Shown here piece after piece: positions 15,036 through 64,000 of a stretch of 64,000 bases of DNA. Where the stretch lies: assembly GCA_965216465.1 (NCBI GenBank), contig CBDCFW010000003.1, positions 224,001-288,000 of the forward strand. The letters are read 5' to 3'. This stretch comes from Bacteroidia bacterium. Lineage in GTDB: Bacteria; Bacteroidota; Bacteroidia; NS11-12g; UBA9320. The notes under the pieces are model-generated. The model saw only the letters and a program-made list of their open reading frames with translations, had not been told where the DNA came from and did not search any database. The position numbers and the translations under genes were made by a program. Positions within the stretch are counted from its first letter, which is position 1, and the number at the start of each line of letters is the position of its first letter.

Positions 15036-15188
15036 ATGATTATTTTAGGCACACCCAATGTAACATTAGGACTAGGAGCTACAGAAATTATCATAATTAT
15101 TGAGGCTCTCATTATTCTATACTTAGCTCAAAAACTGAACAAGGCCAATAAAACGATTCAGATATTGAGCAGCGATGAAGAAGAATGA
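15036..15188 (+). CDS. 50-aa single-TM protein with TatA-like N-terminus (not in ORF track)
   Basis: MIILGTPNVTLGLGATEIIIIIEALIILYLAQKLNKANKTIQILSSDEEE; TATATTTG box 4 nt upstream; ATGA overlap with next gene. Confidence 0.6.
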   Translation: MIILGTPNVTLGLGATEIIIIIEALIILYLAQKLNKANKTIQILSSDEEE

Positions 15189-15850: not shown

Positions 15851-15952
15851 GTCTAAAGTAGGTAGATATAAAATCAGTATAATTTAACATTAAAAATTGT
15901 CTCGCATCGGACAAATTGTGCTATATTTCGGCCATTAAATAAAGATCCGAAA

Positions 15953-16282: not shown

Positions 16283-16347
16283 ATCTGAACATTAAGTTAT
16301 TTCAATTAACTAATCCCCGCAGTTGATTACTCTACATACTAATTGGA

Positions 16348-17049: not shown

Positions 17050-17197
17050 AATCTGGTATAATAACTAATTATGCTAGTCATTAACTGCTTAGCAGCGCAA
17101 AACAGTTCATACATCTAAAATATTACTTGGTAGTAATTGTACTACAAATTGAGTTAAACAGCCCGCTAGCTTTGCAGTTCACTTATTACTTATTACT

Positions 17198-17800
17198 TTG
17201 ACTAAAATACACTTATTACTAGTTCTACTTGGCGTTTTAATGCTTTTTACCCAAGATTTGAAAGCACAACAACCTGAATTAATTATAGAAGCTACGGTTC
17301 GAAGCAAGCAGGCTTCAACCAAAAAGAGTATGCTATGCTTTAAAGAAGATATAAAGAAGCACTCTTTGCATTATATCTGGGACAGTATTACCAATCAATT
17401 GATTGCTAATCAGTACAGCACCGAACAGATTCAGACAATTACTAAAGACCGGAAAAGAACCAGACACAAACTGCGAAAGGATGAGATTCGATGGAAGAAA
17501 GCAATAACATCAAATCAACTTAATAAAATTTATCAGACATTCACAACAGACCGACTGGATATTGAGAAATCTCTGATTGTCAATAAGAAGGCTTACCAGC
17601 ATACGACATGGAATATCTATTTGAAATACAATGGAGAAGTTATTCAATTGATGAAATCCAATCCGCATAGCGATAAAACTCCTTGGACCACCCATGATAA
17701 TGGTTATGTACTGAATCCTGAAATTGAAGAAGTATTGCTGGAGCTATTGCCAAGTGATTTTTTACTTCGTAACGAATTGCTTCTGGCGAAAGGAGGGTAG
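17198..17800 (+). CDS. Secreted hypothetical protein
   Basis: Signal peptide ending LKA-Q; TTG start. Confidence 0.65.
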   Translation: MTKIHLLLVLLGVLMLFTQDLKAQQPELIIEATVRSKQASTKKSMLCFKEDIKKHSLHYIWDSITNQLIANQYSTEQIQTITKDRKRTRHKLRKDEIRWKKAITSNQLNKIYQTFTTDRLDIEKSLIVNKKAYQHTTWNIYLKYNGEVIQLMKSNPHSDKTPWTTHDNGYVLNPEIEEVLLELLPSDFLLRNELLLAKGG

Positions 17801-17875
17801 GAGGATAGCACTTAGGGATTAAGTGTATTGTGGCTTTAGACTGAATGGTCAGCAATTTTCCGTAAATTCGGAAGC

Positions 17876-18739
17876 ATGAAGCCAACCTCTAAATTACTAG
17901 CAGCAATACTTGTTATAACGATTGCCTCATGCTTTGAAGCAAAACCTAAAATCAATTTTGGTGATGGATTATCGGTGTTGAAGGATACGACCTTTGTGCT
18001 TGATAATTTAAATATAACACCTCAAGACAAAGGCATACTTATTGAAGACTTGGGAGGAGTTAATTGTGCAAATTGTCCCACCGCTGCACGAAGAGCTCAA
18101 GAAATAAAAGATGACTATCCAAAAAGAGTTGTTGTGGCCGCGTTGTATCCCAATGTCATGCCATTTGCTTATCGCTTAAACCCAAAGGACACCTTAGATA
18201 CTCCCGAAGCAACGGATGTGTTTCTGGAAATTTATGGGGGAGGAGGTCTGCCAGCTGGATCCGTTAACCGAAAAAGATTTCCTGGGCAAACTGCCTTTAC
18301 TTCACTTTCGTCCAAATGGCGAAATTTGACTGAACAAGAATTACCACTTAAATCCAGGATTAATATTGAGGCAGCAACTGTAAAGGAAAACGAGTCAATT
18401 TATGTTCTAAATGTGAAGTTTACTGCTAGTGAAACGGTTGATAATAAGTTGTTTATATCTATAATGTTACTCGAAGATGGTATAAATACAACTCAAGCTG
18501 ATGGATCAATTAAAGACCCTAACTACATCCACAACCATGTGTTAAGAAAGATGTATACTGCATATGACGGAGACTTGTTATATGATTCTCCAGAGAAAGG
18601 TCGTGTCATTGAACGTCGCATTGAAATTCCGATTCCTCAGAATGTGGATCCTTCTAAAGCAAGCATAGTTGTATTCGTAAATGAGAATACGGCTGAGTCT
18701 CGTGAAGTGCTCAATGTAAAAGAGATCAAGCTAAACTAA
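17876..18739 (+). CDS. Omp28-related outer membrane lipoprotein
   Basis: Lipobox IASC; LIEDLGGVNCANCP; HNHVLR motif. Confidence 0.85.
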   Translation: MKPTSKLLAAILVITIASCFEAKPKINFGDGLSVLKDTTFVLDNLNITPQDKGILIEDLGGVNCANCPTAARRAQEIKDDYPKRVVVAALYPNVMPFAYRLNPKDTLDTPEATDVFLEIYGGGGLPAGSVNRKRFPGQTAFTSLSSKWRNLTEQELPLKSRINIEAATVKENESIYVLNVKFTASETVDNKLFISIMLLEDGINTTQADGSIKDPNYIHNHVLRKMYTAYDGDLLYDSPEKGRVIERRIEIPIPQNVDPSKASIVVFVNENTAESREVLNVKEIKLN

Positions 18740-19020
18740 TGTTAGAAATTAGAACCAACTGCGAGAATTGCAACAAGCCACTGCCAAACGAAAGTACCGA
18801 GGCTATGATTTGCACATATGAATGTACATTTTGTGTAACCTGTGTTGATGAGGTTCTGCATAATGTTTGTCCAAACTGTGGTGGAGGATTTGAGAAAAGA
18901 CCGATACGGCCAAGTGCAGAAATAGTAAAGAATCCTGCTTCTCAAAAACACATATTAAAGCCTGTACAACACAACAAGTATTTAGTTCGGTTTAGAGGAG
19001 TGTCTCCAAAAGATAGGTAA
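18739..19020 (+). CDS. DUF1272 family protein
   Basis: MLEIR.NCE.C...AMICTYECTFC..C...CPNCGG. Confidence 0.9.
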   Translation: MLEIRTNCENCNKPLPNESTEAMICTYECTFCVTCVDEVLHNVCPNCGGGFEKRPIRPSAEIVKNPASQKHILKPVQHNKYLVRFRGVSPKDR

Positions 19021-19062
19021 ATTTAGCGTTTAATTTACACCAACTCGCCACTTTGTTAATGA

Positions 19063-19506
19063 CTACCTGCTAAACTCCCAACGCGTTCTTACGTCTTTGT
19101 CATCCGTAAAACGTAGCGTTGAGCGGTTGATTCGATCAATGTAATTCACCATTGAAATGTCAGAACCTCTATAGATACAGATTTCTAATCGGTTTCGAAC
19201 TGTGGTTGTAGCATCGTCTCCAAAACCAGTGGTTTCTTGAACATAGCGATTGTCCCATTCACCGTCGAAGGGTTGTGGATCATTAGAGTAAAATAACTCT
19301 AAAGTGTTGTCATCATAAAAAACAATTTTTTCAATGTCGTATTCATTGGATGCATCATCGAATCCGAACCATCGGTTAGCATGTTCTGCACTTTCGAATT
19401 GCCATTCGCCAACAAGTTTGTCTTTAAATCGCTCGTCTCGATCGCAAGAAGAAAATAAAAAAAGTGAAGCCAGAAGTATAAAAGTGTAGTGTGAAATTGA
19501 TCTCAT
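19063..19506 (-). CDS. Lipocalin-like lipoprotein
   Basis: Lipobox FSSC; LVGEW motif; start moved to ATG 19506 to give a normal signal peptide. Confidence 0.65.
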   Translation of the reverse strand: MRSISHYTFILLASLFLFSSCDRDERFKDKLVGEWQFESAEHANRWFGFDDASNEYDIEKIVFYDDNTLELFYSNDPQPFDGEWDNRYVQETTGFGDDATTTVRNRLEICIYRGSDISMVNYIDRINRSTLRFTDDKDVRTRWEFSR

Positions 19507-19629
19507 GACTTTATAAACACAAAAATCATTCCGTGGATATAACTTATTGATAGTCAATGATCAGTAAGCTGCAAAGCGATCAAATAATAATACCGCTAAA
19601 TAGGTTTTATTGAACAGTAAAAGAGAAAG

Positions 19630-19703
19630 TGCACCCGGGAGGATTCGAACCCCCAACCCCCAGAGCCGAAATCTGGTATTCTATCCAGTTGAACTACGGG
19701 TGC
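19630..19703 (-). tRNA. tRNA-Arg (anticodon TCG)
   Basis: GCACCCG acceptor stem; CCAGA-TT-TCG-GC-TCTGG anticodon arm; GGTTCGAATCC T-arm; CCA not encoded. Confidence 0.95.
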
Positions 19704-19777
19704 CGGTGGGCACAAATATAAAATGCAAATCCACACTTTCTTTTCATTTCTTTACAATTCATTCTATATTTACACCT

Positions 19778-21436
19778 ATGTCTGAAAATTTTGCTTGGTT
19801 AAATAGCTACCCCTCACATGTCCCTAAAACGGTAGATCCTTTAAAATACGAATCTATTGTTTCAGTTTTTGACAATGCCATAAAGAAATACGGTGATTTA
19901 GTTGCGTTCCAAAACATGGATGTTACCTTGACATTCAATGAGTTAAATGACTTAGTAAACGCTTTTGCTTGGTATCTACAAAACAAAACGAACCTGAAAA
20001 AAGGAGATAGGGTTGCCATTCAGATGCCAAACTTGTTGCAGTTTCCTGTAGCTATGTTTGGTGTGCTAAAGGCGGGTATGGTAGCGGTAAACACAAACCC
20101 TTTATACACCCCTGCCGAGATGCTTCACCAATACAAAGATTCTGGTGCGAAAGCCATTGTTATTCTTGAAAATTTTGGTAGCAACTACCAAGAAATTGAA
20201 AGCCAATTAGATATAGACGAAGTTATTGTTACACGAATAGGTGATCTTCTTGGTGGATTGAAAGGAAGCATTGTTAACCTTGTAGTGAAACATGTTAAAA
20301 AAATGGTTCCTCCATTTAAGCTTTCAAAAAGCACGAGTTTCAAAGAGGCCTTGGCAGCAGGAAAAGGAAAATCTCCAGAACCAATTGTAGTTGGCCACGA
20401 TGATATTGCATTCTTGCAATACACAGGAGGTACTACAGGATTATCGAAAGGAGCAATCCTAACACACGGAAATATTTGCGGAAATTTATCGCAAATTGAC
20501 GCTTGGTTGACAGGCTTGTTTACAGATGGTAAAGAAGTGGTAATCACAGCTTTACCTCTATATCACATCTTCGCATTAACAGCAAATTGCCTTACCTTCT
20601 TTAATTATGGAGCACGTAATGTTTTAATAACAAATCCGCGTGATATGAAGTCTTTCTTGAAAGATATGAAGAAGAACCCATTTTCATTAATAACAGGTGT
20701 AAATACCTTGTTTAATGGGATGCTGAATCAGCCTACTTTCAAAGACATCGACTTCTCGAAACTTAAGGTTTCTTTGGGTGGAGGTATGGCGGTACAAGAC
20801 TCTGTAGCTTTGAAATGGCAGGAGGTAACAAATTCTCCTTTACTTGAAGCTTATGGATTATCGGAGACGTCGCCTGCAGCAACCATAAATCCATGTGATG
20901 GCTCGCATAGAATGGGAACTATTGGACTTCCAATTCCGAATACTGATGTTAGAATTTTGGATGATGACAAGAATGAAGTACCAGTAGGAGAAAGAGGAGA
21001 AATTGCAATCAAAGGCCCTCAAGTTATGCCGGGCTATTGGGAAAAACCTGAAGCAACCGCCGAAGTATTGCACAACGGTTATTTCTTAACTGGCGATATT
21101 GGTATAATGAATGAAGACGGCTTCTTTAAAATTGTGGATAGGAAAAAAGAAATGGTCTGTGTATCAGGATTTAACGTTTATCCAAGTGAGGTAGAAGCGG
21201 TGATTTCTGACCATCCTAAAGTATTGGAAGTGGGAGTTAGAAGTGAGCCTGATGCTAAAACAACAGAAGCAGTTATGGCATTTGTTGTACGAAAAGATGA
21301 TAGCCTTACTGAGGATGAAGTTCGCGATTTCTGTCGCGAAAAATTAACCGCCTATAAGGTGCCAAAGATTGTAGTCTTCAGAGATGAATTGCCGAAGTCG
21401 AACGTTGGTAAGATCTTAAGAAGAAAGCTTGAGTAA
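19778..21436 (+). CDS. fadD: Long-chain fatty acid-CoA ligase
   Basis: LQYTGGTTG.SKG, YGLSETSP, TGDIG, PKSNVGKILRR; start set to ATG 19778 because the longer ORF overlaps the tRNA. Confidence 0.92.
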   Translation: MSENFAWLNSYPSHVPKTVDPLKYESIVSVFDNAIKKYGDLVAFQNMDVTLTFNELNDLVNAFAWYLQNKTNLKKGDRVAIQMPNLLQFPVAMFGVLKAGMVAVNTNPLYTPAEMLHQYKDSGAKAIVILENFGSNYQEIESQLDIDEVIVTRIGDLLGGLKGSIVNLVVKHVKKMVPPFKLSKSTSFKEALAAGKGKSPEPIVVGHDDIAFLQYTGGTTGLSKGAILTHGNICGNLSQIDAWLTGLFTDGKEVVITALPLYHIFALTANCLTFFNYGARNVLITNPRDMKSFLKDMKKNPFSLITGVNTLFNGMLNQPTFKDIDFSKLKVSLGGGMAVQDSVALKWQEVTNSPLLEAYGLSETSPAATINPCDGSHRMGTIGLPIPNTDVRILDDDKNEVPVGERGEIAIKGPQVMPGYWEKPEATAEVLHNGYFLTGDIGIMNEDGFFKIVDRKKEMVCVSGFNVYPSEVEAVISDHPKVLEVGVRSEPDAKTTEAVMAFVVRKDDSLTEDEVRDFCREKLTAYKVPKIVVFRDELPKSNVGKILRRKLE

Positions 21437-53539: not shown

Positions 53540-53569
53540 AAAAAAGCCCACAAAGCGAACATTGTGGGC
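53540..53569 (-). terminator. Intrinsic terminator after SnoaL-like gene
   Basis: GCCCACAA/TTGTGGGC stem with minus-strand U tail. Confidence 0.7.
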
Positions 53570-53590
53570 GACCAGAAAATGTGTGAAGTA

Positions 53591-53956
53591 TTACGCGTTT
53601 ACTTCATAGAAAAATTGCTCTTTAACAATTTTACCATCTTTAACTTCATAGAGGCAGATTTCGTCCATTTGGGCACGATTGCCATCTTTGAAAGTAATGT
53701 CGTTCCACATTCTGCAGGTGAAGTAGTTTCCTGCAATTATGGGTTCTGATACTTCGGCACCGTGCATTTCTTGCACCATGTCGTTCCACTGTTTTCCTTT
53801 AGCTGCGAATTCTTCCATGCCCTGAGCTACTTCCCATTGAGCACCTTTAGGTTCTTGACTAATAGCGTCTGGACTGAAGAGTTCGGCGTAACATTTTTCA
53901 AATTGCCCTGTGCGGCAATAGGTTACGAGTTTGTTTGCAATTTCTTGTGTCGTCAT
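53591..53956 (-). CDS. SnoaL-like (NTF2 fold) protein
   Basis: EL.S.DA.S.EP; M.E...Y.VKDGKIV.EQFFY. Confidence 0.88.
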   Translation of the reverse strand: MTTQEIANKLVTYCRTGQFEKCYAELFSPDAISQEPKGAQWEVAQGMEEFAAKGKQWNDMVQEMHGAEVSEPIIAGNYFTCRMWNDITFKDGNRAQMDEICLYEVKDGKIVKEQFFYEVNA

Positions 53957-54088
53957 TGTTAATATAATTATCAAATTGTATGATCATAATATAGTCATGA
54001 AAATTGAAGCACAAAGAGAAATTCCAAAATAGTTGAAATATTTTTTGGAAGCTGAGGAGTGCGTTAGGAGGGGTAAAGTATGAACTTT

Positions 54089-54376
54089 TTAGGCAGATGC
54101 TGGTTTGATGTACTTCTTATCGGCGTAAAACGTTCCAAAAGGAATAATTGCGCACAATAGCACGATTGCAAAGCTGCGGTTATCCCACTTCAATCGATCG
54201 CGAAGTACTATAGCAAGAAAGAGGTAAATGATGAATAAAACACCGTGGGGCATGCCTAGGGCTTTTACCCATGAGTCATTGTTAGCTAGATACTTAAGTG
54301 GACTTCCTACAAGAGCAAGAAGGATAAGCGAAATACCTTCTAAGTAGCTTATAATTCTGAAAAAATTGACAATCAT
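54089..54376 (-). CDS. DUF3817 family membrane protein
   Basis: FR...YLEG.S; G..HG.LF..Y; IPFGTF. Confidence 0.88.
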   Translation of the reverse strand: MIVNFFRIISYLEGISLILLALVGSPLKYLANNDSWVKALGMPHGVLFIIYLFLAIVLRDRLKWDNRSFAIVLLCAIIPFGTFYADKKYIKPASA

Positions 54377-54432
54377 TTTAGTGTTGACAAAACTAGTAGA
54401 AATATTGGTACAAGGCAGCCTAATTTTGTACC

Positions 54433-54529
54433 GTTAACAAAGTTAAGTAGTAGAACGCTTTTGTGTTTTATTTTAAAATTTTGTTACTAATAATGGTTAG
54501 AGGGCCTGGGTGCAAACCCAGGCCTTTTT
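54433..54529 (+). ncRNA. Putative small RNA
   Basis: TAATTTTG -7 box at 54421-54428; no meaningful ORF; ends in GGCCTGGG/CCCAGGCC-T5 terminator. Confidence 0.5.
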
Positions 54530-54710
54530 ATTAGGATGTTTTTATGATTCTTACCCAATTTTGAGTGTTAACTTGATAATTAGGAATTAAAGGTTATATT
54601 TTTGCGTATGAGACTCATAACAAGAGGGTTAGTGTGGGTCTCAAAAATTGTTTAAAGCGTTTAACGATTTAAACTTTGTAGAGCTTGGCAGGGGGTTGGA
54701 AGTACGCTAC

Positions 54711-54825
54711 TAGAAACATAATGTGGTTATTATGTTGTTGTAAGGTGACCAAGCTCTTACATACCTTCTTATGATGGCGATTAACGGCCGGACGTACCTG
54801 CATAACGTTTAGAATTATGTTAAAT
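54711..54825 (+). other. Pair of Xer/dif-like sites with non-canonical spacers
   Basis: AACATAA-N8-TTATGTT at 54715-54736; GCATAA-N9-TTATGTTAAAT, whose right arm 54815-54825 equals the E. coli XerD arm. Confidence 0.35.
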
Positions 54826-55050
54826 CAAAAAACGCTCACCGGCAACGACAAACTCATGTACGATTTCATTAAGTCAAGTGATACCGTTTCAATCGACACG
54901 GGGTATATCACCTGGTTCTCAAAAACAAATTATTTCCGAGTGGTTTATGAGGGAGTTGACAACCTTACAGAGGATATATACTCCGAGATCGAAGCAGTAT
55001 TCGCAAGAATTTATCCTTTATATTTAGAGGATAAGATGTATCCTCATTAG
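54817..55050 (+). CDS. Hypothetical protein
   Basis: 77-aa ORF; ATG lies inside the XerD-like arm. Confidence 0.45.
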   Translation: MLNQKTLTGNDKLMYDFIKSSDTVSIDTGYITWFSKTNYFRVVYEGVDNLTEDIYSEIEAVFARIYPLYLEDKMYPH

Positions 55051-55067
55051 TGAGTTTATAACTCTAA

Positions 55068-55799
55068 CTAGTAGATTACCAGCGTTCTGACGGAAATTTT
55101 ATCATCTTGACGAATGCGAACTGCATACAAGCCGGGTTTGAGTTTTCCAAAATCGAGCTTTAGCCTGTTGCTTCCTAAATCTTCAAAAATTTGGAAGCTG
55201 TGCGTTACTCCAAGACCATCAATGAGTTCAATATCCGATTCGGTTATTGGGTTATTAGATTGTATGAATATGATTCCATTTGAAGGGTTTGGGAAAATGT
55301 TGACTTCATATTTAGGAGTGTTAATTGAAGTCGAAACTTTGTGTACTAAAGGAATAAATGGCCTATTGTCTTTTAATCTGTCAACGTAAAGTTCTGCTCT
55401 CAAAGCACGTTTGTCTGTTTGTCTTCCATAGCATTGCGGACTAATACTAAATCCAAGCAAAGCATCGCTGCTGTTTTGATCACTATTAACGAAAAGAATG
55501 TCATTCAATATAAAGTGAGCTCCAGGAACAATGTATTGACCTATTGCTTTTCGAACTTCAGGATAGTCTTCTGGAATCAAATCAAACCAAGTTTGCCAGA
55601 TAATTGTGTCGTCTGGATACAAGGTGTCAGGACCTTGATTGGTGAATAGAAATGAAATTTTCAGATTTACAGGAGATTGAATGGTCTGAAATGGGCTTGG
55701 TTCAATAAACTCCACTTTGCCGTCAATATAACGGTCAATGTACTGAGCGCTTAAATATGGACTTAAGAGGAGCGTTAAAATCGGTATTATTTCTCTCAT
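55068..55799 (-). CDS. T9SS type A secreted protein, IEPSP/TNQGPD family (paralog 3 of 4)
   Basis: Signal peptide; family motifs; FPNPSNG CTD. Confidence 0.8.
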   Translation of the reverse strand: MREIIPILTLLLSPYLSAQYIDRYIDGKVEFIEPSPFQTIQSPVNLKISFLFTNQGPDTLYPDDTIIWQTWFDLIPEDYPEVRKAIGQYIVPGAHFILNDILFVNSDQNSSDALLGFSISPQCYGRQTDKRALRAELYVDRLKDNRPFIPLVHKVSTSINTPKYEVNIFPNPSNGIIFIQSNNPITESDIELIDGLGVTHSFQIFEDLGSNRLKLDFGKLKPGLYAVRIRQDDKISVRTLVIY

Positions 55800-55885
55800 G
55801 TAAGGATTTATTTTATCATCAGTGTTTTACAGATTAAAATTTCAGCATGACCATAGCCGTAGTTATTAATATTAATCTCATGGCT

Positions 55886-56635
55886 TTATTGAATAATAAT
55901 GGGTTTAGATTCAATGTACTTATCAAGCTTGATTCGAATAATGTATAGTCCTGGACTGATGTCGCCGAAATCCAGCTTATAAGTATTGTTCATTTGGGTT
56001 TCAATTGTCCGGCAGTTGTGCTTTACTCCAAGACCATCAATGAGTTCAATACTCCAGTCAACTATTGCTTTATTCGATTGTATGAAAATGACTCCGTTTG
56101 AAGGATTTGGGAAAACGTTGATTTTATTTTCTAAATTCAGAATGGATGCAGAGTTAGGTGCTTTATGAATAAGACGAATTGCTGGTGAATTATCCTTCAT
56201 GTAATCTTCATAAAACTCAGGGTGTAACGATCTCTTGTCTGTCTGTAAACCATATGCTCGTGGTTCAATTTGAAATGTGAACAGCATATTGTCGTTATTG
56301 AATTTACTGTTAATAAAAACTGTATCAAAATATACTAAGTGTTGGTCAGGTGCAACAAAGCTACCGATTGCAACTTTTCTAATTGGAGGTAAAGATTCTT
56401 CTCTCATTGAACTATAGTAATATTGCCAGACTAGTGTGTCATCAGGGTATAAAGTGTCAGGTCCTTGGTTGGTCATTAGGAAGGAGGAAGGTAAGTAAAT
56501 AGGAGACTGGATCTCGGTTAAAGGACTAGGTTCAATAAACTCAATTTTGAGATCAGCATACCGTGGGATGAATACTTGTCCATCAGAATTCAGAAACAGA
56601 AAAATCAAGATGAGGAATATTATATTTCTATGCAT
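55886..56635 (-). CDS. T9SS type A secreted protein, IEPSP/TNQGPD family (paralog 4 of 4)
   Basis: Signal peptide; family motifs; FPNPSNG CTD. Confidence 0.8.
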   Translation of the reverse strand: MHRNIIFLILIFLFLNSDGQVFIPRYADLKIEFIEPSPLTEIQSPIYLPSSFLMTNQGPDTLYPDDTLVWQYYYSSMREESLPPIRKVAIGSFVAPDQHLVYFDTVFINSKFNNDNMLFTFQIEPRAYGLQTDKRSLHPEFYEDYMKDNSPAIRLIHKAPNSASILNLENKINVFPNPSNGVIFIQSNKAIVDWSIELIDGLGVKHNCRTIETQMNNTYKLDFGDISPGLYIIRIKLDKYIESKPIIIQ

Positions 56636-56639
56636 GGTA

Positions 56640-57566
56640 TTATTTTTTTAGTTGGTTAAAATTTTCGTTTTTTTCGTCAATGTCTTTTTGAGTCGAGCAC
56701 TTGCAACATATTTCAATTGGTATTTCGATATGTAGGTCAGGGCATTCATCAGGTGATTTATTTATGCACGGAAGAATAGCTATATTTAATCTATAGCTCT
56801 TGCAACCTTTGGGCACTGAATTATCATCTACTTGTGATTGATCTTGATTATGATAAGTTTTGCAGTGTCTCTGTAAATGTGAAACATTTTCAGATCTACC
56901 CAATCTATATCTTTCCGAAAGTTTAGCCCAACCCAGGTCAACTTCATCTTTTGGAGTGCCTATAGTTATAGAAGTTGTACCACAAAACCCATCCAAATTC
57001 ACTATGGCATCCAACTTAAAGTCCTTGAACGTTCTGCATTTGCGTGTATCAATGGTGTAGATGTCTTCAGGTTTTATAATGTTTAAGGTTGTGGTTGTAC
57101 CTGTTTTCTTACCGAATTGATCTTCTTCAATGATGGTTGTTACCTCAATGCGATGCACATCATCCTCAAATTCGAACCAGTTGTTGTTGAACGAACCGTC
57201 TTCTTCGAGAATCATATCAATAATGTTTACCTTTTTGGGAATGTATTCCATCCGAAGAGAGTCATACCAATTAACTAATGCTGGACCTTTTTGGTGGTCT
57301 CCTAGATCGAGGCCTTCATAATTGTGAGAAATAGAATTTCCTGCAGCGTCGTATAGTTCAATATAGACATAATCGAGATTGTTGCTCGATAAAGCTTGCC
57401 TGAATCGGAAGGATGCATCAAGCACGTTGTAGGAATTTCCATCGAGCTCTATCGACTGGTAGCAGTTTTCGAGCCGAGAGTTTGCGAATCCATCGCGTTG
57501 TGCAAAAGAGTGTAGGGTTATGAAATAGAGGATTAAGCTTGAAGAAAGTTTAATGGCTGTTTTCAT
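56640..57566 (-). CDS. Secreted cysteine-rich hypothetical protein (paralog of 5422..6333)
   Basis: Signal peptide; 10 Cys align with the 5422 ORF. Confidence 0.8.
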   Translation of the reverse strand: MKTAIKLSSSLILYFITLHSFAQRDGFANSRLENCYQSIELDGNSYNVLDASFRFRQALSSNNLDYVYIELYDAAGNSISHNYEGLDLGDHQKGPALVNWYDSLRMEYIPKKVNIIDMILEEDGSFNNNWFEFEDDVHRIEVTTIIEEDQFGKKTGTTTTLNIIKPEDIYTIDTRKCRTFKDFKLDAIVNLDGFCGTTSITIGTPKDEVDLGWAKLSERYRLGRSENVSHLQRHCKTYHNQDQSQVDDNSVPKGCKSYRLNIAILPCINKSPDECPDLHIEIPIEICCKCSTQKDIDEKNENFNQLKK

Positions 57567-57570
57567 ACTA

Positions 57571-57622
57571 CAAGGCTAGGAGAGGGGCAAGCCTGATTTT
57601 GTAGTAAATCATTGAACTTGAG
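57571..57622 (-). promoter_or_regulatory. -7 box plus conserved 24-bp upstream motif of cassette copy 2
   Basis: Minus strand TAGCCTTG 4 nt before ATG; TTGTAGTAAATCATTGAACTTGAG at 57599-57622. Confidence 0.65.
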
Positions 57623-57656
57623 AAGCGGCCATTTTGACCAACAAACGAGCAATAAC

Positions 57657-57741
57657 AAAAAAGCCGCTCCAGTAGGAACGGCCCGTTTTAAGGTTAGTTA
57701 GGTTAAATTTTCATATGGCTAGAGTTTTCTAGGGGTATGTC
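57657..57741 (-). ncRNA. Putative sRNA A (carries UAACCUAACUAACC)
   Basis: Minus-strand TATCTTTG box at 57746-57753; terminator GCCGTTCC-tact-GGAGCGGC-T6. Confidence 0.5.
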
Positions 57742-57921
57742 ATTTCAAAGATAAGAAGAGGTTATAGGAGCAGATATATACATTTCTATATAAAAAAGTG
57801 TGTAAAAGGATATTTGCTGTAGACTGAGCAAATACCATTGATGATGGGCTTTTAGGTGGTAATGTGGGTATAACATGACAGTTTTATTTGAAACTTAGCA
57901 ACATAACAAATACTATTGCCG

Positions 57922-58018
57922 CAATCTTAACTAGGGGTTAGTTTAGGTTAGTACTAATATTATAGTTAAGGTTATAATTTATAGCCATCCTGTTTTAGGT
58001 TATCGGGATGGCTTTTTT
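57922..58018 (+). ncRNA. Putative sRNA B (carries GGUUAGUUUAGGUUAG)
   Basis: TTTG(57887)-N20-TACTATTG(57911) promoter; terminator AGCCATCCTG/CGGGATGGCT-T run. Confidence 0.55.
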
Positions 58019-58095
58019 GTGCCTGAAACACGCAAGTTTTGTCTGGCGAAGCCCTAAATGAATGATATAAGCTCCACAAATGCTACATTCGGAAA

Positions 58096-58395
58096 GTGTT
58101 AGTCAAAATCTTACAAGACAGAACAGATCGAAAGCCGCCGAATAACTTGTCGTGGTTGGAGTGGTGGAAGCAGCAAAAAAGTGTCAGTACAGCGAATGTC
58201 CGGTGTAGAGCGACAGGCTGTATAAACTACGCTAGTCAAGCTTCACAGGTTATAAGTTGTGATGCTCGCAGCACAGCACGAAGGTGGTATATTGTACCCT
58301 TATGTGCATCGCATATTAAGCAAGAAGACTGTTTTAATGTGCCGCATGGGCAGCTTGAGGGGTATAATGCGTGCACAAAACTAGTTAAGTTATGA
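58096..58395 (+). CDS. Small Cys-rich hypothetical protein (SWL..W...C...GC...WYIVPLC)
   Basis: 99 aa; TACATTCG box 4 nt before GTG. Confidence 0.65.
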   Translation: MLVKILQDRTDRKPPNNLSWLEWWKQQKSVSTANVRCRATGCINYASQASQVISCDARSTARRWYIVPLCASHIKQEDCFNVPHGQLEGYNACTKLVKL

Positions 58396-58547
58396 AATTT
58401 AGTTAACGAAGATGGGCATTACATTGGAATTTGGCGATTTGAGCAAGCTATATTTTGAATAGAATCAGATGTTAATGTATTAATGTTACATGAAATAATG
58501 TGCTTTTATATAACGTAGAGAACACCGCATTAAGATAGGTTTGTAAT

Positions 58548-59477
58548 ATGAGTAGTGAGAGTACAAATTGGGTAGAGTCATTTTACGATGCATTAAAGGA
58601 AAGAGTTAAAAGTCCATATACTGGGGCGTATATATTTTCATGGATAGGGTATAATTATGATTTGTTCATATTATTATTTTTCGTGGATGGAACAAAAAAG
58701 GGATTAGACAAGATTGAAGAAGCTAAAAGAATACTTGGAAATTCATTCATCGCTGATTTGGATAAAGATTTTGGATTTTGGGGAACGTTCTGGATTCCTG
58801 CAGTTGCCGCATTAACATTGATGTTGCTATTTCCAATTATTAATATGGCTGCATCTATGTATAGTAATTGGATGAAGAAGGTTACTCGATCCAAAATATT
58901 AAAGCAAGGGAAGAAGTTTACTGTTTCAGGCGAGGAATATTTTGATAAACTAATGGAAATTCAGAGGTTAAATGATGAAGCAATTGCAGAATCAAAAAGA
59001 GTCCAAGAATTATCAAATATTTGGAAGAAAGAAAAGAAGGAGAGTGAGAGAGTAAAAGATAAGTATATTATGTTGATTAGAGCAGAATCCGCGATTAAGG
59101 AACCCTATCAATTTGCGACAGATGGAATAATTCTAGATCATTATATACGTGGCAAAGAAATAGGTGAACATATGGAAGCACTTAGAACGTTTTATATTTT
59201 GTACGGGGCAATGAAGGGTTTTATAAATAGAGATGAGGAAGTACTGACGTCGATCATATATTCTAAATGGGCTACTAGATTCGAAACTGATGGAATATTT
59301 GTTTATGAAATAGAAACAAAATTAACAGGACGCACAGGATTGGCTAATGTAGTTAGAGTAAATGTATTAAGAGGAACTAGATTTAAGAAGACTGGTTTAG
59401 CTTTGCTAGTCAGAATGTTGATAAAAGAGGAATACCAAGAGATATATAAAAGGGCAAGTTTAAATGATTTGGGATGA
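58548..59477 (+). CDS. Membrane plus coiled-coil hypothetical protein
   Basis: ERVKSP..GA.IFSW...N N-terminus; two TMs; coiled segment. Confidence 0.75.
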   Translation: MSSESTNWVESFYDALKERVKSPYTGAYIFSWIGYNYDLFILLFFVDGTKKGLDKIEEAKRILGNSFIADLDKDFGFWGTFWIPAVAALTLMLLFPIINMAASMYSNWMKKVTRSKILKQGKKFTVSGEEYFDKLMEIQRLNDEAIAESKRVQELSNIWKKEKKESERVKDKYIMLIRAESAIKEPYQFATDGIILDHYIRGKEIGEHMEALRTFYILYGAMKGFINRDEEVLTSIIYSKWATRFETDGIFVYEIETKLTGRTGLANVVRVNVLRGTRFKKTGLALLVRMLIKEEYQEIYKRASLNDLG

Positions 59478-59489
59478 TAATTTTGCGAT

Positions 59490-59771
59490 ATGGATACAAT
59501 AAATAAAGAAGAATTTGCGGCCCTATTTGGAATGATAGGATGGATGTGTAATGAGCTTGCAATGATAAAGGGAATGAATCAAGTCCTGCTAAAAATGATT
59601 GCAACTGACAAGGGTTTTGAATTAGAAAATGTGAAAAAAGAGATAGAGTCTTTTTATGCATCTTACAATTTGATCAGTGCAGACAAGCTAGACCAAATAG
59701 TGAGATATGCAACAGATGAAGATTATAGGAATGAACAAGGTGCCGACTTCTATAAGAAGTTATTTAAGTGA
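59490..59771 (+). CDS. Hypothetical protein
   Basis: 93 aa; TAATTTTG box 4 nt before ATG. Confidence 0.65.
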   Translation: MDTINKEEFAALFGMIGWMCNELAMIKGMNQVLLKMIATDKGFELENVKKEIESFYASYNLISADKLDQIVRYATDEDYRNEQGADFYKKLFK

Positions 59772-59968
59772 TATCAAATACCCGACTTCCTAAAGATCTG
59801 CAGCTGAAAATACGATATCAATTTGTATTTCGGAAACCAGGAGCTTCAGGAGAAAATGACATCATTTAATCTTCTGAACCTCTCATAAATGATTAAGGAA
59901 GTTCTGGATCCACAAACTGTAGAATCAAGATAGGCCCTATAAACAGGGGCAATTTATATATTTGAGTT

Positions 59969-60871
59969 ATGATTATTTGGAAATTACTATTATGGTTGAT
60001 GGAGGCTAGCTCTGAGATTGTGGGAATACTAGGGCAAATGACAAGTGTTGTTTTTTCAACTCTGCTTACTCTTTTTATTGTTTGGTTAAGACAGTTCTAT
60101 GTAAAAAGATATGATGCTCAGAAAGTGGCAAAGGAATTGGAAGAGAAAAGAAGGTACTACTTAAAAATGGCTCGACTAGGTGCCGAAAGTTTAAAGAAAT
60201 ACTCAAAGATTCTTAAAGATAATAGAAACCTGTTCAAACGAATGGCTAGTGGTAAACTTGGAGTGTTTAATACTATGCAAATAAGTGCAATAATTGAATT
60301 AGAAAAAATGGATTTATTGAGATACAATAAGGCATTTAATGTTGTTAATGAAGGTCGAAAAGTTGAAGTTGAAGAGTGTCAAATAAACATTGCCAATCAT
60401 GCCAGATTTATTATTGCGATACATGAAAGATATTTAGAAGAGGTAAAAGAATTTATAAGTGCTTACAACGAACATAGAAAGGAACATGACGAAGAAATTA
60501 GAAGGATGATTGGTTTGGATGAGAATGTTAGAGTCAAAATACAAAAGATGTCACCGACGCGAGAAGAACAACGGTATTTTATGGAAGTTCACGGCATTAT
60601 AGATGAGTATATGAAGGTAGATGAGGAGGTTAGAATTTACAGCTCACAAGAATTATTAGTAAAACCATTATCAGAAGCTTGTATGAAGTATTATTCTTTG
60701 TCTTGGGCATCAGATATGCAAAAGGCAATTGGAAAAAGTAGAGATGCTGATGCCCAAATATTAACCGTGGTCAAAGCTGCTAGTACACAGTCTAAAATAT
60801 ATGCGGATAATGCTACAAATGCTGCTAAGAAGGTAGAAGAAAATATTAAGTTGCTTGAGAGTTTGTTGTAA
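59969..60871 (+). CDS. TM-anchored helical hypothetical protein
   Basis: N-terminal TM; TATATTTG box 4 nt before ATG. Confidence 0.75.
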   Translation: MIIWKLLLWLMEASSEIVGILGQMTSVVFSTLLTLFIVWLRQFYVKRYDAQKVAKELEEKRRYYLKMARLGAESLKKYSKILKDNRNLFKRMASGKLGVFNTMQISAIIELEKMDLLRYNKAFNVVNEGRKVEVEECQINIANHARFIIAIHERYLEEVKEFISAYNEHRKEHDEEIRRMIGLDENVRVKIQKMSPTREEQRYFMEVHGIIDEYMKVDEEVRIYSSQELLVKPLSEACMKYYSLSWASDMQKAIGKSRDADAQILTVVKAASTQSKIYADNATNAAKKVEENIKLLESLL

Positions 60872-60922
60872 TTGGTTAATATTGGCCACATAACAGATCA
60901 AAGATTTAATATCAATAGAACT

Positions 60923-60950
60923 TGTGCCTATAATTTATAGTATGTTCCTA
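60923..60950 (+). other. dif-like XerC/D site, candidate left attachment site
   Basis: TGTGCCTATAA-TTTATA-GTATGTTCCTA versus E. coli dif GGTGCGCATAA-TGTATA-TTATGTTAAAT; 58 bp before rep. Confidence 0.5.
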
Positions 60951-61008
60951 GTCTTTATAAACCTCTGAATATGAAAACTTTAGGTTAATTCTCGAAAGAG
61001 TAGGCCTG

Positions 61009-62202
61009 TTGATAAAAAAAGAAACTTTACTTGATCATACATACCTTGAAGAGAACACTTTAAAAGTCGCATCAATCGACAGTTTAAAGTTGAGAATCCC
61101 TTTCGAAGAGGTAAAGTTAATAAAAACTGACTTAGACGACAATTGGAAATATCTAAACGACTCCACCGGAGAGATTGACGAGAAGGAATATTTAAAACGA
61201 GCTTACTGGTCAAGAGCCAAAGGAATAGCCACTAAATATGCAGTAGAACACCAAACAATAGAAGGTGGCCACATCAGAAAATACTTGGTAATCCTGGTAA
61301 GTTCTAAAGTTCTCAAAGAACTTTATTTCTATGGCATCAGCAAGAAAACAATCTTCCATCTTTTAAAGGAGATCAATAATCAAAATGTTGTAAATCTTGA
61401 AATGTATCAGCTCCTTCAGGCTGAATGCGTAGATATTGATTTCAAAGTAGATTATGAAATGACAATCCATGAGTTTGAAGGATTAATTGAATTGTCTAAA
61501 CACATGACCATCCCAAAGCAACGCCTTAAAACAGGATATCAAGTTTTCTTGGGAAAAGGTAATAAAGGTATTGCTTGGGGAACACGTCAAACACAATCTC
61601 CAAAAACAAATCCATTCTGGAAACACTACCACAAAGGATTAGAGCTAAAAGAAAAATCCTATGAATTCACTGACGAATACCTAACAGACCAGGTATTTGA
61701 AAACAGATGCCGGACCGAGTTTACCATCAAAAACCGCCAACACTTAAACGCAGTATTCGGAAGTCCGCAAAGTGATTTAAACTATTTGATCAATCTTCCT
61801 CAAGATAAGCTGTTTGCAGCCTTAAATATGTGCATCGATGCACACTTATATCGTCCTGACGGATACAAACCTATTGAAGAACGGACCTATAAAAACCCTG
61901 CTGACACCATCATAAGCAATTTAATCCAGGTAGCAATCATGTCCAAGTTTTCTGAAACACACATCATAGAAATAGCCTTAAATGGAATAACGGACAAACA
62001 TCGAAGAACCAGGCAGAAGAAAAGAGTGCGATTCTTGATCAGGCAACTGGTACATCAGCATCCATCCACACAAAATCAATTGGCCAAGAATAAAGCGGGC
62101 CACGAGTTATATAAATGGCTAACAGACGAAGGTAAGGATAACAGAAGTGTCTCAACGGAGTTAACCCAACAATTACTTTTCTATAAAACGATGTATGACT
62201 AG
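61009..62202 (+). CDS. Rolling-circle replication initiator, Rep_trans/phage CRI-like
   Basis: SIDSLKLRIP; DIDFKVD; WGTR; K.Y.K..E; R.EFTIK in the family order. Confidence 0.7.
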   Translation: MIKKETLLDHTYLEENTLKVASIDSLKLRIPFEEVKLIKTDLDDNWKYLNDSTGEIDEKEYLKRAYWSRAKGIATKYAVEHQTIEGGHIRKYLVILVSSKVLKELYFYGISKKTIFHLLKEINNQNVVNLEMYQLLQAECVDIDFKVDYEMTIHEFEGLIELSKHMTIPKQRLKTGYQVFLGKGNKGIAWGTRQTQSPKTNPFWKHYHKGLELKEKSYEFTDEYLTDQVFENRCRTEFTIKNRQHLNAVFGSPQSDLNYLINLPQDKLFAALNMCIDAHLYRPDGYKPIEERTYKNPADTIISNLIQVAIMSKFSETHIIEIALNGITDKHRRTRQKKRVRFLIRQLVHQHPSTQNQLAKNKAGHELYKWLTDEGKDNRSVSTELTQQLLFYKTMYD

Positions 62203-62359
62203 ACTTGAAAAACTAAAGGCCAAAAGAGCAACTCTCCAGGACTACATAAAAAAGACTGGAAGCACTCAATTTGCAGAAAGGTTATCCAACCTAAATAAGG
62301 CAATATTTTGTCTTGAATGGCTTGAAAACAACCAAAAAATAATTGATGAGCTGATTTAG
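62195..62359 (+). CDS. 54-aa hypothetical protein (not in ORF track)
   Basis: MTRLEKLKAKRATLQDYIKK...DELI; overlaps rep stop by 8 nt. Confidence 0.55.
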   Translation: MTRLEKLKAKRATLQDYIKKTGSTQFAERLSNLNKAIFCLEWLENNQKIIDELI

Positions 62360-62364
62360 GCTCC

Positions 62365-62446
62365 AGGGTCATTTCTAGATAATGACCCTAAGTTGCGTTG
62401 GACCGCAACCACGATGCAAAGCGAGTGGGCGTCCAACCACTTAGGG
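62365..62446. other. Hairpin-rich non-coding segment, candidate replication origin
   Basis: AGGGTCATT/AATGACCCT, CCCTAAGT/ACTTAGGG, GTTGGAC/GTCCAAC and GTTGCG/CGCAAC inverted repeats. Confidence 0.45.
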
Positions 62447-62585
62447 CTAAATCATCCTATACATCTATAATAAACTCAATACTAGTGTGTTACGCTGAAA
62501 TATTACTCAAACCTTCAAAAAAGCCTTGAAGTACATATATGTAATAGCAGATTACATAAGAATTTATTAATAACACATAGCAATT

Positions 62586-63317
62586 ATGGCCGAAATTTTA
62601 AATACCACGGGAGTGGTATCAGCAAAAGCAAAAATCGCAACTTCAGTTATAAAACTGGGTATGACGATTGAAGACCAAACTGCAGGTTTGGCAAAGGCAG
62701 ACTTGGAAAACATTCTAGTAAAAATCATTGATGCAGGAAATGGTTCAAATCCTGTAATCCACAGCGTGGATTTATGGACCTTACTGGAAGAAAGTGCTGA
62801 GACTGTAGGAGTGTTCATGTTGGCAGCTAACAAATTGACTGGAAGTGTTGACCTTGTAGTGGATGAAATGCCATTTAACGCAAGAGAAATTAACTTCCTT
62901 GAAGTTCAATTATCAGGATTGGTTGCAACGCAAACCGTAAAACTTTATGCTATCGATGGATGGGGTAATGATGGAGCATTAAGAAACTTACAGCTCAAAT
63001 CAATTGTAGGAAGTGCAATGAATGACATTAGTTTAATGGGAGTTAAACGCATGATTATTCCAATTTCTAAGATTGACTCTGTAACACTTGATTATCCAGC
63101 TTTAGGCAATCTAAAAGCAAAATCAGTAACCTACACAGAAGAGGAGCTTGAAATCTTACAGCTTGAAGACCCTGGTATTGTTTACCTAAAAGGTAAATCA
63201 GCAACACCACAGTATCTGGTAGAAAACAATTGGATTCTAGCCTGTAACAATGCAGTTAGAGCCAAAGTACAACCTAAAGCTGCTGCGGGAGACTTCAACA
63301 TCCTACTGGACAAGTAA
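62586..63317 (+). CDS. Candidate major capsid protein (beta-rich, possible small double jelly-roll)
   Basis: 243 aa; no signal peptide or TM; alternating hydrophobic beta pattern; first gene of the structural-looking block; fold is inference only. Confidence 0.5.
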   Translation: MAEILNTTGVVSAKAKIATSVIKLGMTIEDQTAGLAKADLENILVKIIDAGNGSNPVIHSVDLWTLLEESAETVGVFMLAANKLTGSVDLVVDEMPFNAREINFLEVQLSGLVATQTVKLYAIDGWGNDGALRNLQLKSIVGSAMNDISLMGVKRMIIPISKIDSVTLDYPALGNLKAKSVTYTEEELEILQLEDPGIVYLKGKSATPQYLVENNWILACNNAVRAKVQPKAAAGDFNILLDK

Positions 63318-63412
63318 TGGCACTCAAATTCATTTACAAAACCAAAGCACAGCGGCGTAAGATTTTACGCAACATTGCTTTAAGCAAGAAGAAAGGAAAT
63401 GGGAAAGGGTAG
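63317..63412 (+). CDS. 31-aa highly basic peptide (not in ORF track)
   Basis: MALKFIYKTKAQRRKILRNIALSKKKGNGKG; TAATG coupling to upstream gene. Confidence 0.5.
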   Translation: MALKFIYKTKAQRRKILRNIALSKKKGNGKG

Positions 63413-63803
63413 ATTAAAAAAATGGTTCAAGGAAAAAGGAGCTAAGAAGATTTTAGGTGGCCTGGAGAAATTCGGGACACTTATTCCTGGAGTGGGTGGA
63501 ATTGTTTCTACTGGAGCTGCTCAATTAAAAGAGCGCTTAGGCGACAAGGAAGCACAAAAAGCAATGGCAGCAACGTACGCAGGTGCGGTTGCTGAATCAG
63601 TGGACAACGCTCAAGGAATAGTATCTAGACAAGGCTCATTTGAAGAACAAGTTGAGATGGAAGCAAAAAAGCAGAGAATCAAAAGAATTTTAGGACAAGT
63701 AGGTATGGTGTTAGCGGGGCTAACTGTCGTACTTATTCCAATTATTCTAATTGTTAGATCACGCAAACGAAAAGGTTTTGCACGTAAAAAAAGAAGAAGA
63801 TAA
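63399..63803 (+). CDS. Putative virion membrane protein
   Basis: Basic N-terminus; IPGVGGIV amphipathic segment; C-terminal TM then RSRKRKGFARKKRRR. Confidence 0.6.
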   Translation: MGKGRLKKWFKEKGAKKILGGLEKFGTLIPGVGGIVSTGAAQLKERLGDKEAQKAMAATYAGAVAESVDNAQGIVSRQGSFEEQVEMEAKKQRIKRILGQVGMVLAGLTVVLIPIILIVRSRKRKGFARKKRRR

Positions 63804-63805
63804 TC

Positions 63806-64000
63806 ATGTTGAAATTAGACGGAAAAAACAACGGAACACTGTGGCTTGAAGAGAAAGACCGCAAGGTGTTCAAAGGAGACAGAAAAGGAGAAACTTACCA
63901 GTGCTTTGAAGGCACAATCGACACTGGAGGCGGTAAAATGATTACAATAAAAATGTATTCAAACACCGATCCAGTAGATAAAGACGGTAAGACATTACTG
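63806..64000 (+). CDS. Partial ORF, possibly ssDNA-binding protein (3' truncated)
   Basis: MLKLDGKNNGTLWLEEKDRKVFKGDRKGETYQCFEGTID... open to window end; starts 2 nt after previous stop. Confidence 0.55.
   Translation, partial: MLKLDGKNNGTLWLEEKDRKVFKGDRKGETYQCFEGTIDTGGGKMITIKMYSNTDPVDKDGKTLL

Follow-up and report, generated by a model that had tools for sequence, protein, structure and literature searches.

Organization of the locus

The DNA analyzed here is a stretch of 64,000 nt from a Bacteroidia bacterium (G000:C3:224001-288000), referred to below as the window, whose right-hand end carries the beginning of an element designated E1. On a 20-kb segment read across the window end (L001; L001 position = window position - 58000), the feature continues to window-equivalent position 76612, and only its left third lies inside the window. 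Window positions 60926-64000 form the left end of E1, which measures 8,292 bp and is directly adjoined by a second unit, E2, of 7,370 bp. E1 and E2 are two syntenic, divergent prophages in tandem at the chromosomal dif site. A preliminary description of the window had taken the region for the left part of one small prophage; the left end of E1 is indeed there, but the prophage is not single, since two stand in tandem and a third, cargo-like unit (E0) accompanies them. The features of E1 and the sites that delimit the two units are listed below in window positions unless marked L001 (aa, amino acids; ORF, open reading frame).

60926..60950, plus strand: dif-like site 1, the left attachment site (attL) of E1, GCCTATAA-TTTATA-GTATGTTCCTA; XerC-type arm and centre intact, right arm degenerate and derived from the element
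61009..62202, plus strand: replication initiator (Rep), 397 aa, predicted divergent rolling-circle Rep of the Rep_trans type
62195..62359, plus strand: 54-aa ORF with an 8-nt overlap with Rep, translationally coupled; same position as phiCjT23 gp04 (55 aa) and phi18:4 gp3 (73 aa)
62360..62585, plus strand: hairpin-rich non-coding spacer, 226 nt
62586..63317, plus strand: major capsid protein (MCP), 243 aa, predicted minimal double-jelly-roll fold like that of phiCjT23 P5
63317..63412, plus strand: ORF for a basic peptide of 31 aa
63399..63803, plus strand: candidate virion membrane protein, 134 aa, C-terminal transmembrane helix at residues 94-112; positional equivalent of phiCjT23 gp06
63806..64000, plus strand: 5' part of an ORF of 86 aa, whose end is at window-equivalent 64066; corresponds in position to phiCjT23 gp07 and phi18:4 gp6
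L001 6250-6906: GH108 lysin (GH108 + PG_binding_3), matching an endolysin PHROG
L001 6903-7539: transmembrane proteins
L001 7460-7930: 156-aa protein
L001 9726-10034, minus strand: 102-aa gene of E1
L001 11218: dif-like site 2, between E1 and E2
L001 11218-18587: E2, 7,370 bp
L001 18588-18612: site 3, the chromosomal dif

All ORFs of E1 within 61009-64000 lie on the plus strand and overlap or abut one another. Everything that the preliminary description had listed, namely the dif-like site, the ORFs of 397, 54, 243, 31 and 134 aa and a truncated ORF, co-oriented and coupled, was found again with the ORF list. Its description of the spacer as hairpin-rich also held. Folded as single-stranded DNA (ssDNA), the spacer has a minimum free energy of -28.9 kcal/mol vs -16.2 +/- 3.0 for shuffled sequences (z = -4.21; 0/200 shuffles equal), and it probably represents the replication origin or nick region. 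The 54-aa ORF has no significant homology in Pfam, PHROGs or a local comparison with phage proteins, and Pfam and PHROGs gave nothing significant for the Rep, the MCP and the transmembrane protein of E1.

Both units encode a Rep, a small ORF, an MCP of ~240 aa, small membrane or structural proteins, a peptidoglycan hydrolase, further small transmembrane proteins and a minus-strand regulatory gene; E1 has four small transmembrane proteins. Of the downstream genes that the preliminary description had anticipated, a lysin is present, but neither a spike homologue nor a packaging ATPase (FtsK/HerA-type), nor indeed any P-loop protein, was found among the ORFs. The units are without an integrase of their own. 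Pfam Phage_integrase matches four genes genome-wide and none on this contig, in agreement with the integrase-less window first described, and family-profile scans found no recombinase families among the ORFs of E1 and E2. Two of the four Phage_integrase genes, located off this contig, have products of 304 and 306 aa and so match XerC and XerD in length.

The capsid protein

The fold of the 243-aa protein links the locus to a known group of phages. A narrow MCP profile of four sequences (E1, E2 and two relatives) was used in an exhaustive search of 1.84 billion representatives and recovered 94 proteins at E <= 1e-3, nearly all of 230-270 aa. The resulting 93-sequence alignment (A3, E1 first) matched the whole of PDB 7zzz_J, the 239-aa 'Major capsid protein P5', with an E of 1.1e-31. 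PDB 7ZZZ is the capsid of phage phiCjT23 (PMC9719478). Additionally, 29 of the 93 family members match phrog_20547, 'virion structural protein'.

The AlphaFold model of the E1 protein (pLDDT 95.1, pTM 0.90) leads to the same phage. In Foldseek, 7zzz_A ranked first (E 5.4e-14, TM-score 0.81/0.82, root-mean-square deviation 3.0, 18% identity), followed by the capsid proteins of STIV, PRD1, FLiP, PM2 and PBCV-1 and by viral double-jelly-roll proteins in BFVD. Scores were lower for PM2 P2 (2vvf, TM-score 0.61) and FLiP (5oac, 0.55/0.45). This fold match is independent of sequence intermediates. Judged by its modeled fold, the 243-aa protein is a minimal double-jelly-roll MCP of the phiCjT23 P5 type, and the capsid fold on which the preliminary description had made its phage assignment depend is present.

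In an even sample of 401 genomes of the phylum, the MCP family turned up in five, namely G000 and four members of a single further family (f4), and in IMG/VR none of 38 pattern matches to MCP profile A1 was related.

The dif sites and the empty locus

The 3.23-Mb genome contains exactly three copies of a 14-nt core, GCCTATAATTTATA, and all of them lie at this locus (L001 2926, 11218 and 18588; spacings of 8,292 and 7,370 bp); the reversed control gave none. The copies at 11218 and 18588 supply the right boundary sites that had been called for when E1 was first described. Sites 1 and 2 have in common the left arm and the TTTATA centre, while their right arms differ and are both degenerate. At site 3 the right part is TTATGTTAACC, which resembles the XerD arm of Escherichia coli dif, and the arm TTATGTTAAC is found at site 3 only among the three.

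This arm is characteristic of the genus. The 20-mer ATAATTTATATTATGTTAAC is present at <=2 mismatches in 22 of 28 genus genomes, as one copy each except for one genome with two, and its reversed control matched in 2 genomes of the same set. The genus dif consensus is (G/T)CCTATAA-TTTATA-TTATGTTAAC, and the dif site adjoins an orthologue of the tetratricopeptide repeat (TPR) gene flanking site 3 in 8 of 12 genus loci. Because only site 3 keeps the genus-wide arm, it is identified as the chromosomal dif. In two well-assembled relatives (G007 and G016), from which the elements are absent, a LysE gene, dif and the TPR gene lie within ~0.7 kb, while the same LysE and TPR genes are ~23 kb apart in G000. 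The comparison with an empty locus that had been suggested at the outset thus shows an insertion at dif.

Integrative mobile elements exploiting Xer recombination (IMEXs), such as CTXphi and other Vibrio phages that integrate at dif, have no integrase of their own and insert at the chromosomal dif. In their tandem arrays, hybrid sites of degenerate sequence lie to one side, and a functional dif is restored at the opposite side. E1 and E2 resemble them in lacking an integrase, in their insertion at the chromosomal dif, with a degenerate dif-like site on one side and a dif with the genus arm on the other, and in their tandem array; use of the host Xer recombinases would complete the likeness. 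However, CTXphi-type elements are filamentous with Zot-type assembly, while the units described here are predicted to be of the icosahedral double-jelly-roll type.

Population variants

Four coded sequencing runs of one study carry the locus as contigs, which were compared with L001; depth is ~2-3. No RNA run is listed among those with the locus. In run X2, a contig of 6,420 nt (depth 3.26) joins L001 2925 to 18588, skipping 15,662 nt. The junction falls inside the 14-nt core of site 1, and the 14 letters that fit both sides are the shared core. E0 is retained on this contig while E1 and E2 are missing. The same run also has a contig of E1 (L001 3272-7886), and in other runs continuous contigs lead from E0 into E1 (L001 1-4521) and from E1 through E2 into host DNA (7340-20000). 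Because contigs of both kinds occur across the runs, forms with and without E1 and E2 coexist, and a precise recombination of site 1 with site 3 accounts for the difference.

Contigs from three runs of a single sample follow the locus as far as L001 3063 and 2215 and then continue with 255 letters unlike it, which suggests other variants or another element at the site in the population.

E2, a related element and known phages

E1 and E2 are only distantly similar. Their Reps are ~30% identical, their capsid proteins (243 and 245 aa) ~25%, and the other pairs are weaker. The hydrolase slot is occupied by GH108 + PG_binding_3 in E1 and by Peptidase_M15_3 in E2, and both match endolysin PHROGs. 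The minus-strand genes of 102 and 78 aa (L001 9726-10034 and 13132-13368) are 55% identical between the units, against 25-30% for all other shared genes, and 92 nt of their DNA are 71% identical. The two prophages may thus have a regulator or an immunity function in common or, being co-resident, may have exchanged the gene recently. Their N-terminus looks like a ribbon-helix-helix by eye, and only chance matches were obtained for the 102-aa protein against PDB.

Apart from G000, the Rep profile matched a single genome among 185,579 species, a metagenome-assembled genome (MAG) of the same genus; with G000 included, 2 of 41 relatives have it. The related locus, L005, has three dif-like sites with the arm TTATGTTAAC at the rightmost alone. 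Its right-hand unit (L005-B, 6.5 kb) is the counterpart of E1, with a Rep 62%, an MCP 61%, a transmembrane protein 54% and a GH108 lysin 54% identical; the E1 156-aa protein and a 126-aa protein of L005 are 31% identical. The phage-derived right arm of L005, ATATGTACCTA, is similar to the E1 arm GTATGTTCCTA. Accessory genes of E1 at L001 8355-9152 are absent from this 6.5-kb relative. They comprise an ORF of 95 aa and the gene for a protein of 169 aa with a SEC-C zinc motif at its end; the weak PADLOC matches of that protein, labeled 'E2', are restricted to this motif.

Phage phiCjT23 is temperate and lipid-containing, with a circular ssDNA genome of 7,642 nt (Kejzar et al. 2022, PMC9719478). 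The same paper reports 57 putative phiCjT23-like prophages of Flavobacterium, 6,021-8,407 bp long, with Rep followed by MCP and flanked by 28-nt dif motifs, implying integration by XerC/XerD (PMC9719478). Sequences like FLiP, phiCjT23 and phi48:2 have been noted in Bacteroidota genomes (PMC13269007), and Cellulophaga phage phi18:4 has an internal lipid membrane (PMC11946311). The gene orders of the two closest isolates are as follows.

phiCjT23 (ON067806): Rep (397 aa) - 55 aa - MCP (239 aa) - gp06 (C-terminal transmembrane helix) - gp07 ... spike gp13 - minus-strand gp14
phi18:4 (KC821628): Rep - 73 aa - gp4 (241 aa) - gp5 - gp6 - gp7 - glucosaminidase gp8 - gp9 ...

In the phi18:4 record most of the listed proteins are marked as virion proteins by tandem mass spectrometry (MS/MS). 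The phiCjT23 MCP is ~36% identical to a 241-aa protein in 11 Cellulophaga phage records (phi12:2, phi18:4, phi48:1, phi12a:1 and Omtje_1-5), and phi48:2 is not among these matches. The preliminary assignment to a phiCjT23/phi48:2-like group therefore stands for phiCjT23 but not for phi48:2, whose place is taken by the phi18:4 group.

E1 reproduces the order of phiCjT23 closely: Rep (397 aa in both), a small ORF (54 and 55 aa), the MCP (243 and 239 aa), a protein with a C-terminal transmembrane helix and a gp07-like protein. As in the phiCjT23-like prophages, an integrase is absent, the flanks are dif-like, and the 7.4-8.3 kb of E1 and E2 fall within the range of 6.0-8.4 kb (PMC9719478). In contrast, the MCP is just 18% identical, the Rep belongs to a different sequence family, a GH108 or M15 hydrolase can be identified while Pfam finds no hydrolase in phiCjT23, the host is of another family, and two divergent copies lie in tandem.

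The candidatus Obscuriviridae (phi18:4, phi12:2, phi12a:1, phi48:1 and Omtje) agree in gene order, down to a peptidoglycan hydrolase placed midway in the structural module, and here direct sequence homology is found, largely through E2. The E2 MCP matches phi18:4 gp4 (6.5e-9, phmmer), phiCjT23 gp05 (8e-6) and phrog_20547 (1.8e-5); the E2 135-aa transmembrane protein matches gp5 (4e-11, phmmer) and phrog_20088, 'virion structural protein' (5e-7); and the E2 124-aa protein, counterpart of the 86-aa ORF of E1, matches phi18:4 gp6 (1e-6) and phiCjT23 gp07 (3e-6). The 134-aa protein of E1 is itself homologous to the structural protein gp5 (E 8.6e-5, phmmer, 51-protein database), as is the 135-aa protein of L005 (1.4e-4, phmmer). 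The E1 86-aa ORF's own match to its phage counterpart is not significant (E 0.29). The phi18:4 group differs in that its members are lytic isolates of 6.5 kb, for which dif sites or lysogeny are not reported in the excerpted text (PMC11946311), its Rep is recognizable as Rep_trans, and its hydrolase is a glucosaminidase, vs GH108 and M15 here. Overall, a minimal MCP and the order Rep, small ORF, MCP, transmembrane structural protein and small structural proteins place E1 and E2 with phiCjT23 and the 'Obscuriviridae'.

FLiP (Finnlakeviridae; 5OAC), itself an ssDNA phage with an internal membrane, likewise combines a double-jelly-roll MCP with a Bacteroidota host. However, its fold match is weaker (TM-score 0.55/0.45 vs 0.81), its MCP has 310 aa and its Rep lies near the genome end (PMC13269007). 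With both the fold score of the MCP and the gene order differing from FLiP, the units do not belong to the Finnlakeviridae.

The replication initiator and its mini-circle relatives

The preliminary description had called the 397-aa ORF Rep-like, and both fold comparison and profile alignment point to a divergent Rep_trans-type protein. A word-based search found six family members. An AlphaFold model built from 6 sequences (pLDDT 77.9) placed the Rep_trans initiators RepDE and RepSTK1 on top in Foldseek, with E values of 2e-4 to 7e-4 and low TM-scores. VIA-align gave Z values of 8.7 (4cij), 7.8 and 7.5 for RepSTK1/RepDE, vs 5.1 for the next group (TBP folds). A 47-sequence alignment contains 18 invariant residues, including D142, D144, D148, K205-x-Y207-x-K209 and R235-x-E237. 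Among 28 isolate proteins, the hidden Markov model of the Rep ranked phi18:4 gp2 first (3.2e-7) and phiCjT23 gp03 second (1.2e-3). In hhalign, the 47-member family aligned with the phi18:4 and phiCjT23 Reps over 131 columns (89% probability, E 2.3e-6), and Y207 was paired with the tyrosine of their 'RIYNKT' motif, which in pT181-type Reps presumably carries the catalytic tyrosine. For the E1 Rep, the catalytic residue is proposed to be Y207, which lies in the invariant motif K-x-Y-x-K. The protein is best regarded as a distant relative within the Rep_trans superfamily, from a family other than that of the phiCjT23 Rep, which itself scores 24.2 bits against Rep_trans, under the 29.6-bit cut-off. 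A weak lead in another direction is given by Phage_CRI (filamentous-phage G2P family), matched weakly by 5 of the 47 members and, as the only lead in the ESM Atlas, by 10% of one cluster.

The Rep also occurs without a phage. The Rep profile found no relatives among 87 pattern matches in IMG/VR, while a metagenome scan yielded 135 relatives, 80 of which were kept (L025-L104). Thirty of the 80 contigs have terminal direct repeats that imply circles of 1,738-4,992 nt, and 25 of the 30 measure 1.7-2.6 kb. On the circular contigs Rep is the one large ORF, and the GC content of the mini-circle set is 25-47%. As the sole large gene of minimal circles, Rep has good claim to be a replication initiator. 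The mini-circles have no protein other than Rep in common with the prophages and no convincing dif site. No MCP gene was found on the 80 metagenomic Rep contigs, just 22 of which extend >=1,200 nt downstream of Rep.

As a speculation to which we give a low probability, the Rep mini-circles could be satellites of membrane-containing ssDNA phages, packaged by the double-jelly-roll capsid of a helper, or else the phage lineage could have arisen from a mini-replicon that captured a morphogenesis module of the phiCjT23 type. If true, such satellites would parallel, in bacteria, the Rep-only alphasatellites known from plant ssDNA viruses, and the capture of the module would illustrate, in an extant lineage, the 'plasmid plus capsid' route by which ssDNA viruses arise.

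Interpretation and alternatives

Based on the current evidence, E1 and E2 are best read as integrase-less temperate phages of the phiCjT23 and Cellulophaga phi18:4 ('Obscuriviridae') type at dif, a reading to which we assign a probability of roughly 85%. By analogy with these relatives (PMC9719478; PMC11946311), and in keeping with the four small transmembrane proteins of E1, both would have an ssDNA genome and an internal membrane. The prophages may still be active.

The following sequence of events is proposed. The attP site of a circular replicative form would have TTTATA at its centre, flanked by a XerC-type arm on one side and a degenerate XerD-type arm on the other. Host XerC and XerD would recombine it with dif, leaving a degenerate hybrid on the left and regenerating a functional dif on the right. 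The regenerated right-hand dif would accept a second phage, so that E1 would have arrived first and E2 second. Recombination between the sites would then lead to excision or loss. After excision, Rep would nick the origin, probably in the hairpin-rich spacer, and initiate rolling-circle synthesis of circular ssDNA, which would be packaged in a membrane-lined pseudo-T=21 capsid; the hydrolase would act in entry, lysis or both.

Several observations weigh against this reading. The narrow four-sequence MCP profile did not reach 7ZZZ or any other relevant match in PDB, and it aligned with phiCjT23 gp05 in hhalign with an E of only 0.006. A tblastn search of 50,697 phage records with the Rep and MCP of E1 gave chance-level matches only, and one with the E2 MCP and 135-aa protein gave chance-level matches or none. 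Because the narrow profile and tblastn fail, the sequence link of the MCP runs via intermediate family members and E2. Pfam Rep_trans (PF02486) matches neither Rep even at E <= 10, and the Rep profiles, including that of 47 sequences, have no match among PDB sequences. Sequence comparison of the E1 and E2 proteins revealed no homologue of the phiCjT23 spike gp13. A conserved protein of 156/122/126 aa occupies the equivalent position, with no sequence match to gp13, and the ESM Atlas gave no usable lead for the 156-aa protein. At the locus, the cumulative GC skew of the contig climbs to ~300 kb, the position of site 3, and is flat thereafter, which fits a replication terminus weakly. The 304- and 306-aa recombinases are candidates for XerC and XerD by size. 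The contig without E1 and E2 could be an excision product or could come from a strain that never carried them. Lastly, no circle ('go-back') junction was seen in the run contigs, which leave some bins uncovered and as contigs cannot show absence.

Some of these points would also be expected if E1 and E2, phiCjT23-like by origin, were now defective cryptic prophages, either Xer-mobilizable or immobile passengers at dif. The missing circle junction and spike homologue fit this explanation, as do the ~1.7 kb of extra genes in E1 relative to the 6.5-kb L005 element and the low run depth of ~2-3. It is nevertheless unlikely. The syntenic ORFs are all intact and translationally coupled in E1, E2 and L005-B, and the proteins of E1 and L005-B are 54-62% identical with gene order kept, which argues for purifying selection. 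Moreover, the population variant without exactly E1 and E2 shows recent gain or loss at the sites.

A small double-stranded DNA (dsDNA) membrane phage of the PM2 or Vinavirales type would likewise combine an internal membrane with a double-jelly-roll capsid and encode a rolling-circle Rep. PM2 P2 and other dsDNA-virus capsid proteins are among the fold matches (2vvf, TM-score 0.61), and the genome type is unreadable from sequence. This explanation is, however, very improbable. The ssDNA phage phiCjT23 is the best match by far (TM-score 0.81 vs <=0.61; profile E 1e-31), direct homologies lead to the ssDNA phage phi18:4, an FtsK/HerA-type packaging ATPase or other P-loop protein is lacking among the ORFs, and units of 7.4-8.3 kb lie inside the 6.0-8.4 kb of the phiCjT23-like prophages (PMC9719478).

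An integrated rolling-circle plasmid, a non-viral IMEX with phage-like cargo or an inovirus is extremely unlikely. In favor of these, the Rep family does otherwise occur on Rep-only circles of 1.7-2.6 kb resembling mini-plasmids, and 5 of its 47 members do weakly match Phage_CRI. Against them, the confident double-jelly-roll MCP largely refutes all three, and homologues of MS/MS-verified virion proteins and an endolysin-type hydrolase are present in both units. A Zot/pI assembly ATPase and a small transmembrane coat protein, which mark the Inoviridae and which the preliminary description had named as the sign of an inovirus, were not found among the ORFs of E1 or E2.

Neighboring units

Further features of the locus, mostly to the left of the prophages, are as follows.

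57970..57994, plus strand: candidate degenerate site 0, GGTTATAATTTATA with a degenerate right arm, 2 mismatches to the 14-nt core
57995..60925, plus strand: E0, four co-oriented ORFs (99, 309, 93 and 300 aa), two with an N-terminal transmembrane helix; strong GC skew
D1 repeat copies: window 59768-59822 (E0); L001 9154-9208 and 9242-9296 (E1); L001 13082-13136 (E2)

Site 0 is the sole further match to the core at <=2 mismatches in the 42 kb scanned. It is weak and a chance match is possible, but it could mark the left end of E0. E0 contains no Rep and no capsid gene, its proteins have no PADLOC match, and its 309-aa protein matches only PHROGs without known function. E0 could represent a cargo-bearing IMEX or else a remnant next to the prophages. 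The 55-nt D1 repeat begins and ends with ATGATATCAAA around a central palindrome rich in CTGCAG. Neither the related L005 element nor the mini-circles contain D1, which could serve as an operator or a minus-strand origin or be a hotspot of recombination.

Window positions 53541-57969, the ~4.4 kb that separate the LysE gene from site 0, are likewise missing at the empty loci of G007 and G016. They encode SnoaL_5 and DUF3817 proteins, two proteins with type IX secretion system (T9SS) sorting domains and a 308-aa ORF, with no bounding dif-like site. In the related MAG, the left-hand unit of L005 (2831-9922) has dif-like sites at both ends but is not a phage. Genes for the anti-phage pair IetA/IetS (E 2.5e-124 and 1.5e-281) and for PDC-S16 make it look like a defence island riding the Xer/dif system.

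Significance

The suggestion that the locus might hold a new phage was overstated, because dif-flanked prophages of this kind are already published, with 57 phiCjT23-like examples in Flavobacterium (PMC9719478). What is new is the host lineage, with the proviso that the published prophage list may already hold hosts other than Flavobacterium. The degree of divergence, the orphan Rep family with its mini-circles, the hydrolase swaps and the tandem pair at dif with a deletion variant are also new.

The finding extends phages of the phiCjT23 and Obscuriviridae type to a MAG-rich genus of the Bacteroidota. The group matters because ssDNA viruses with a double-jelly-roll capsid link ssDNA viruses to the dsDNA Bamfordvirae, and the two divergent capsid sequences, with 18-25% identity to known ones, are available for structural and evolutionary work. 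Exchange of modules within the group is illustrated by three non-homologous hydrolases in one slot (glucosaminidase, GH108 and M15) and by an initiator from a different, orphan branch that is common to tiny Rep-only circles. Finally, the locus offers a clean natural case of what would be serial Xer-type integration at dif in the Bacteroidota, with the exact deletion variant in the population.

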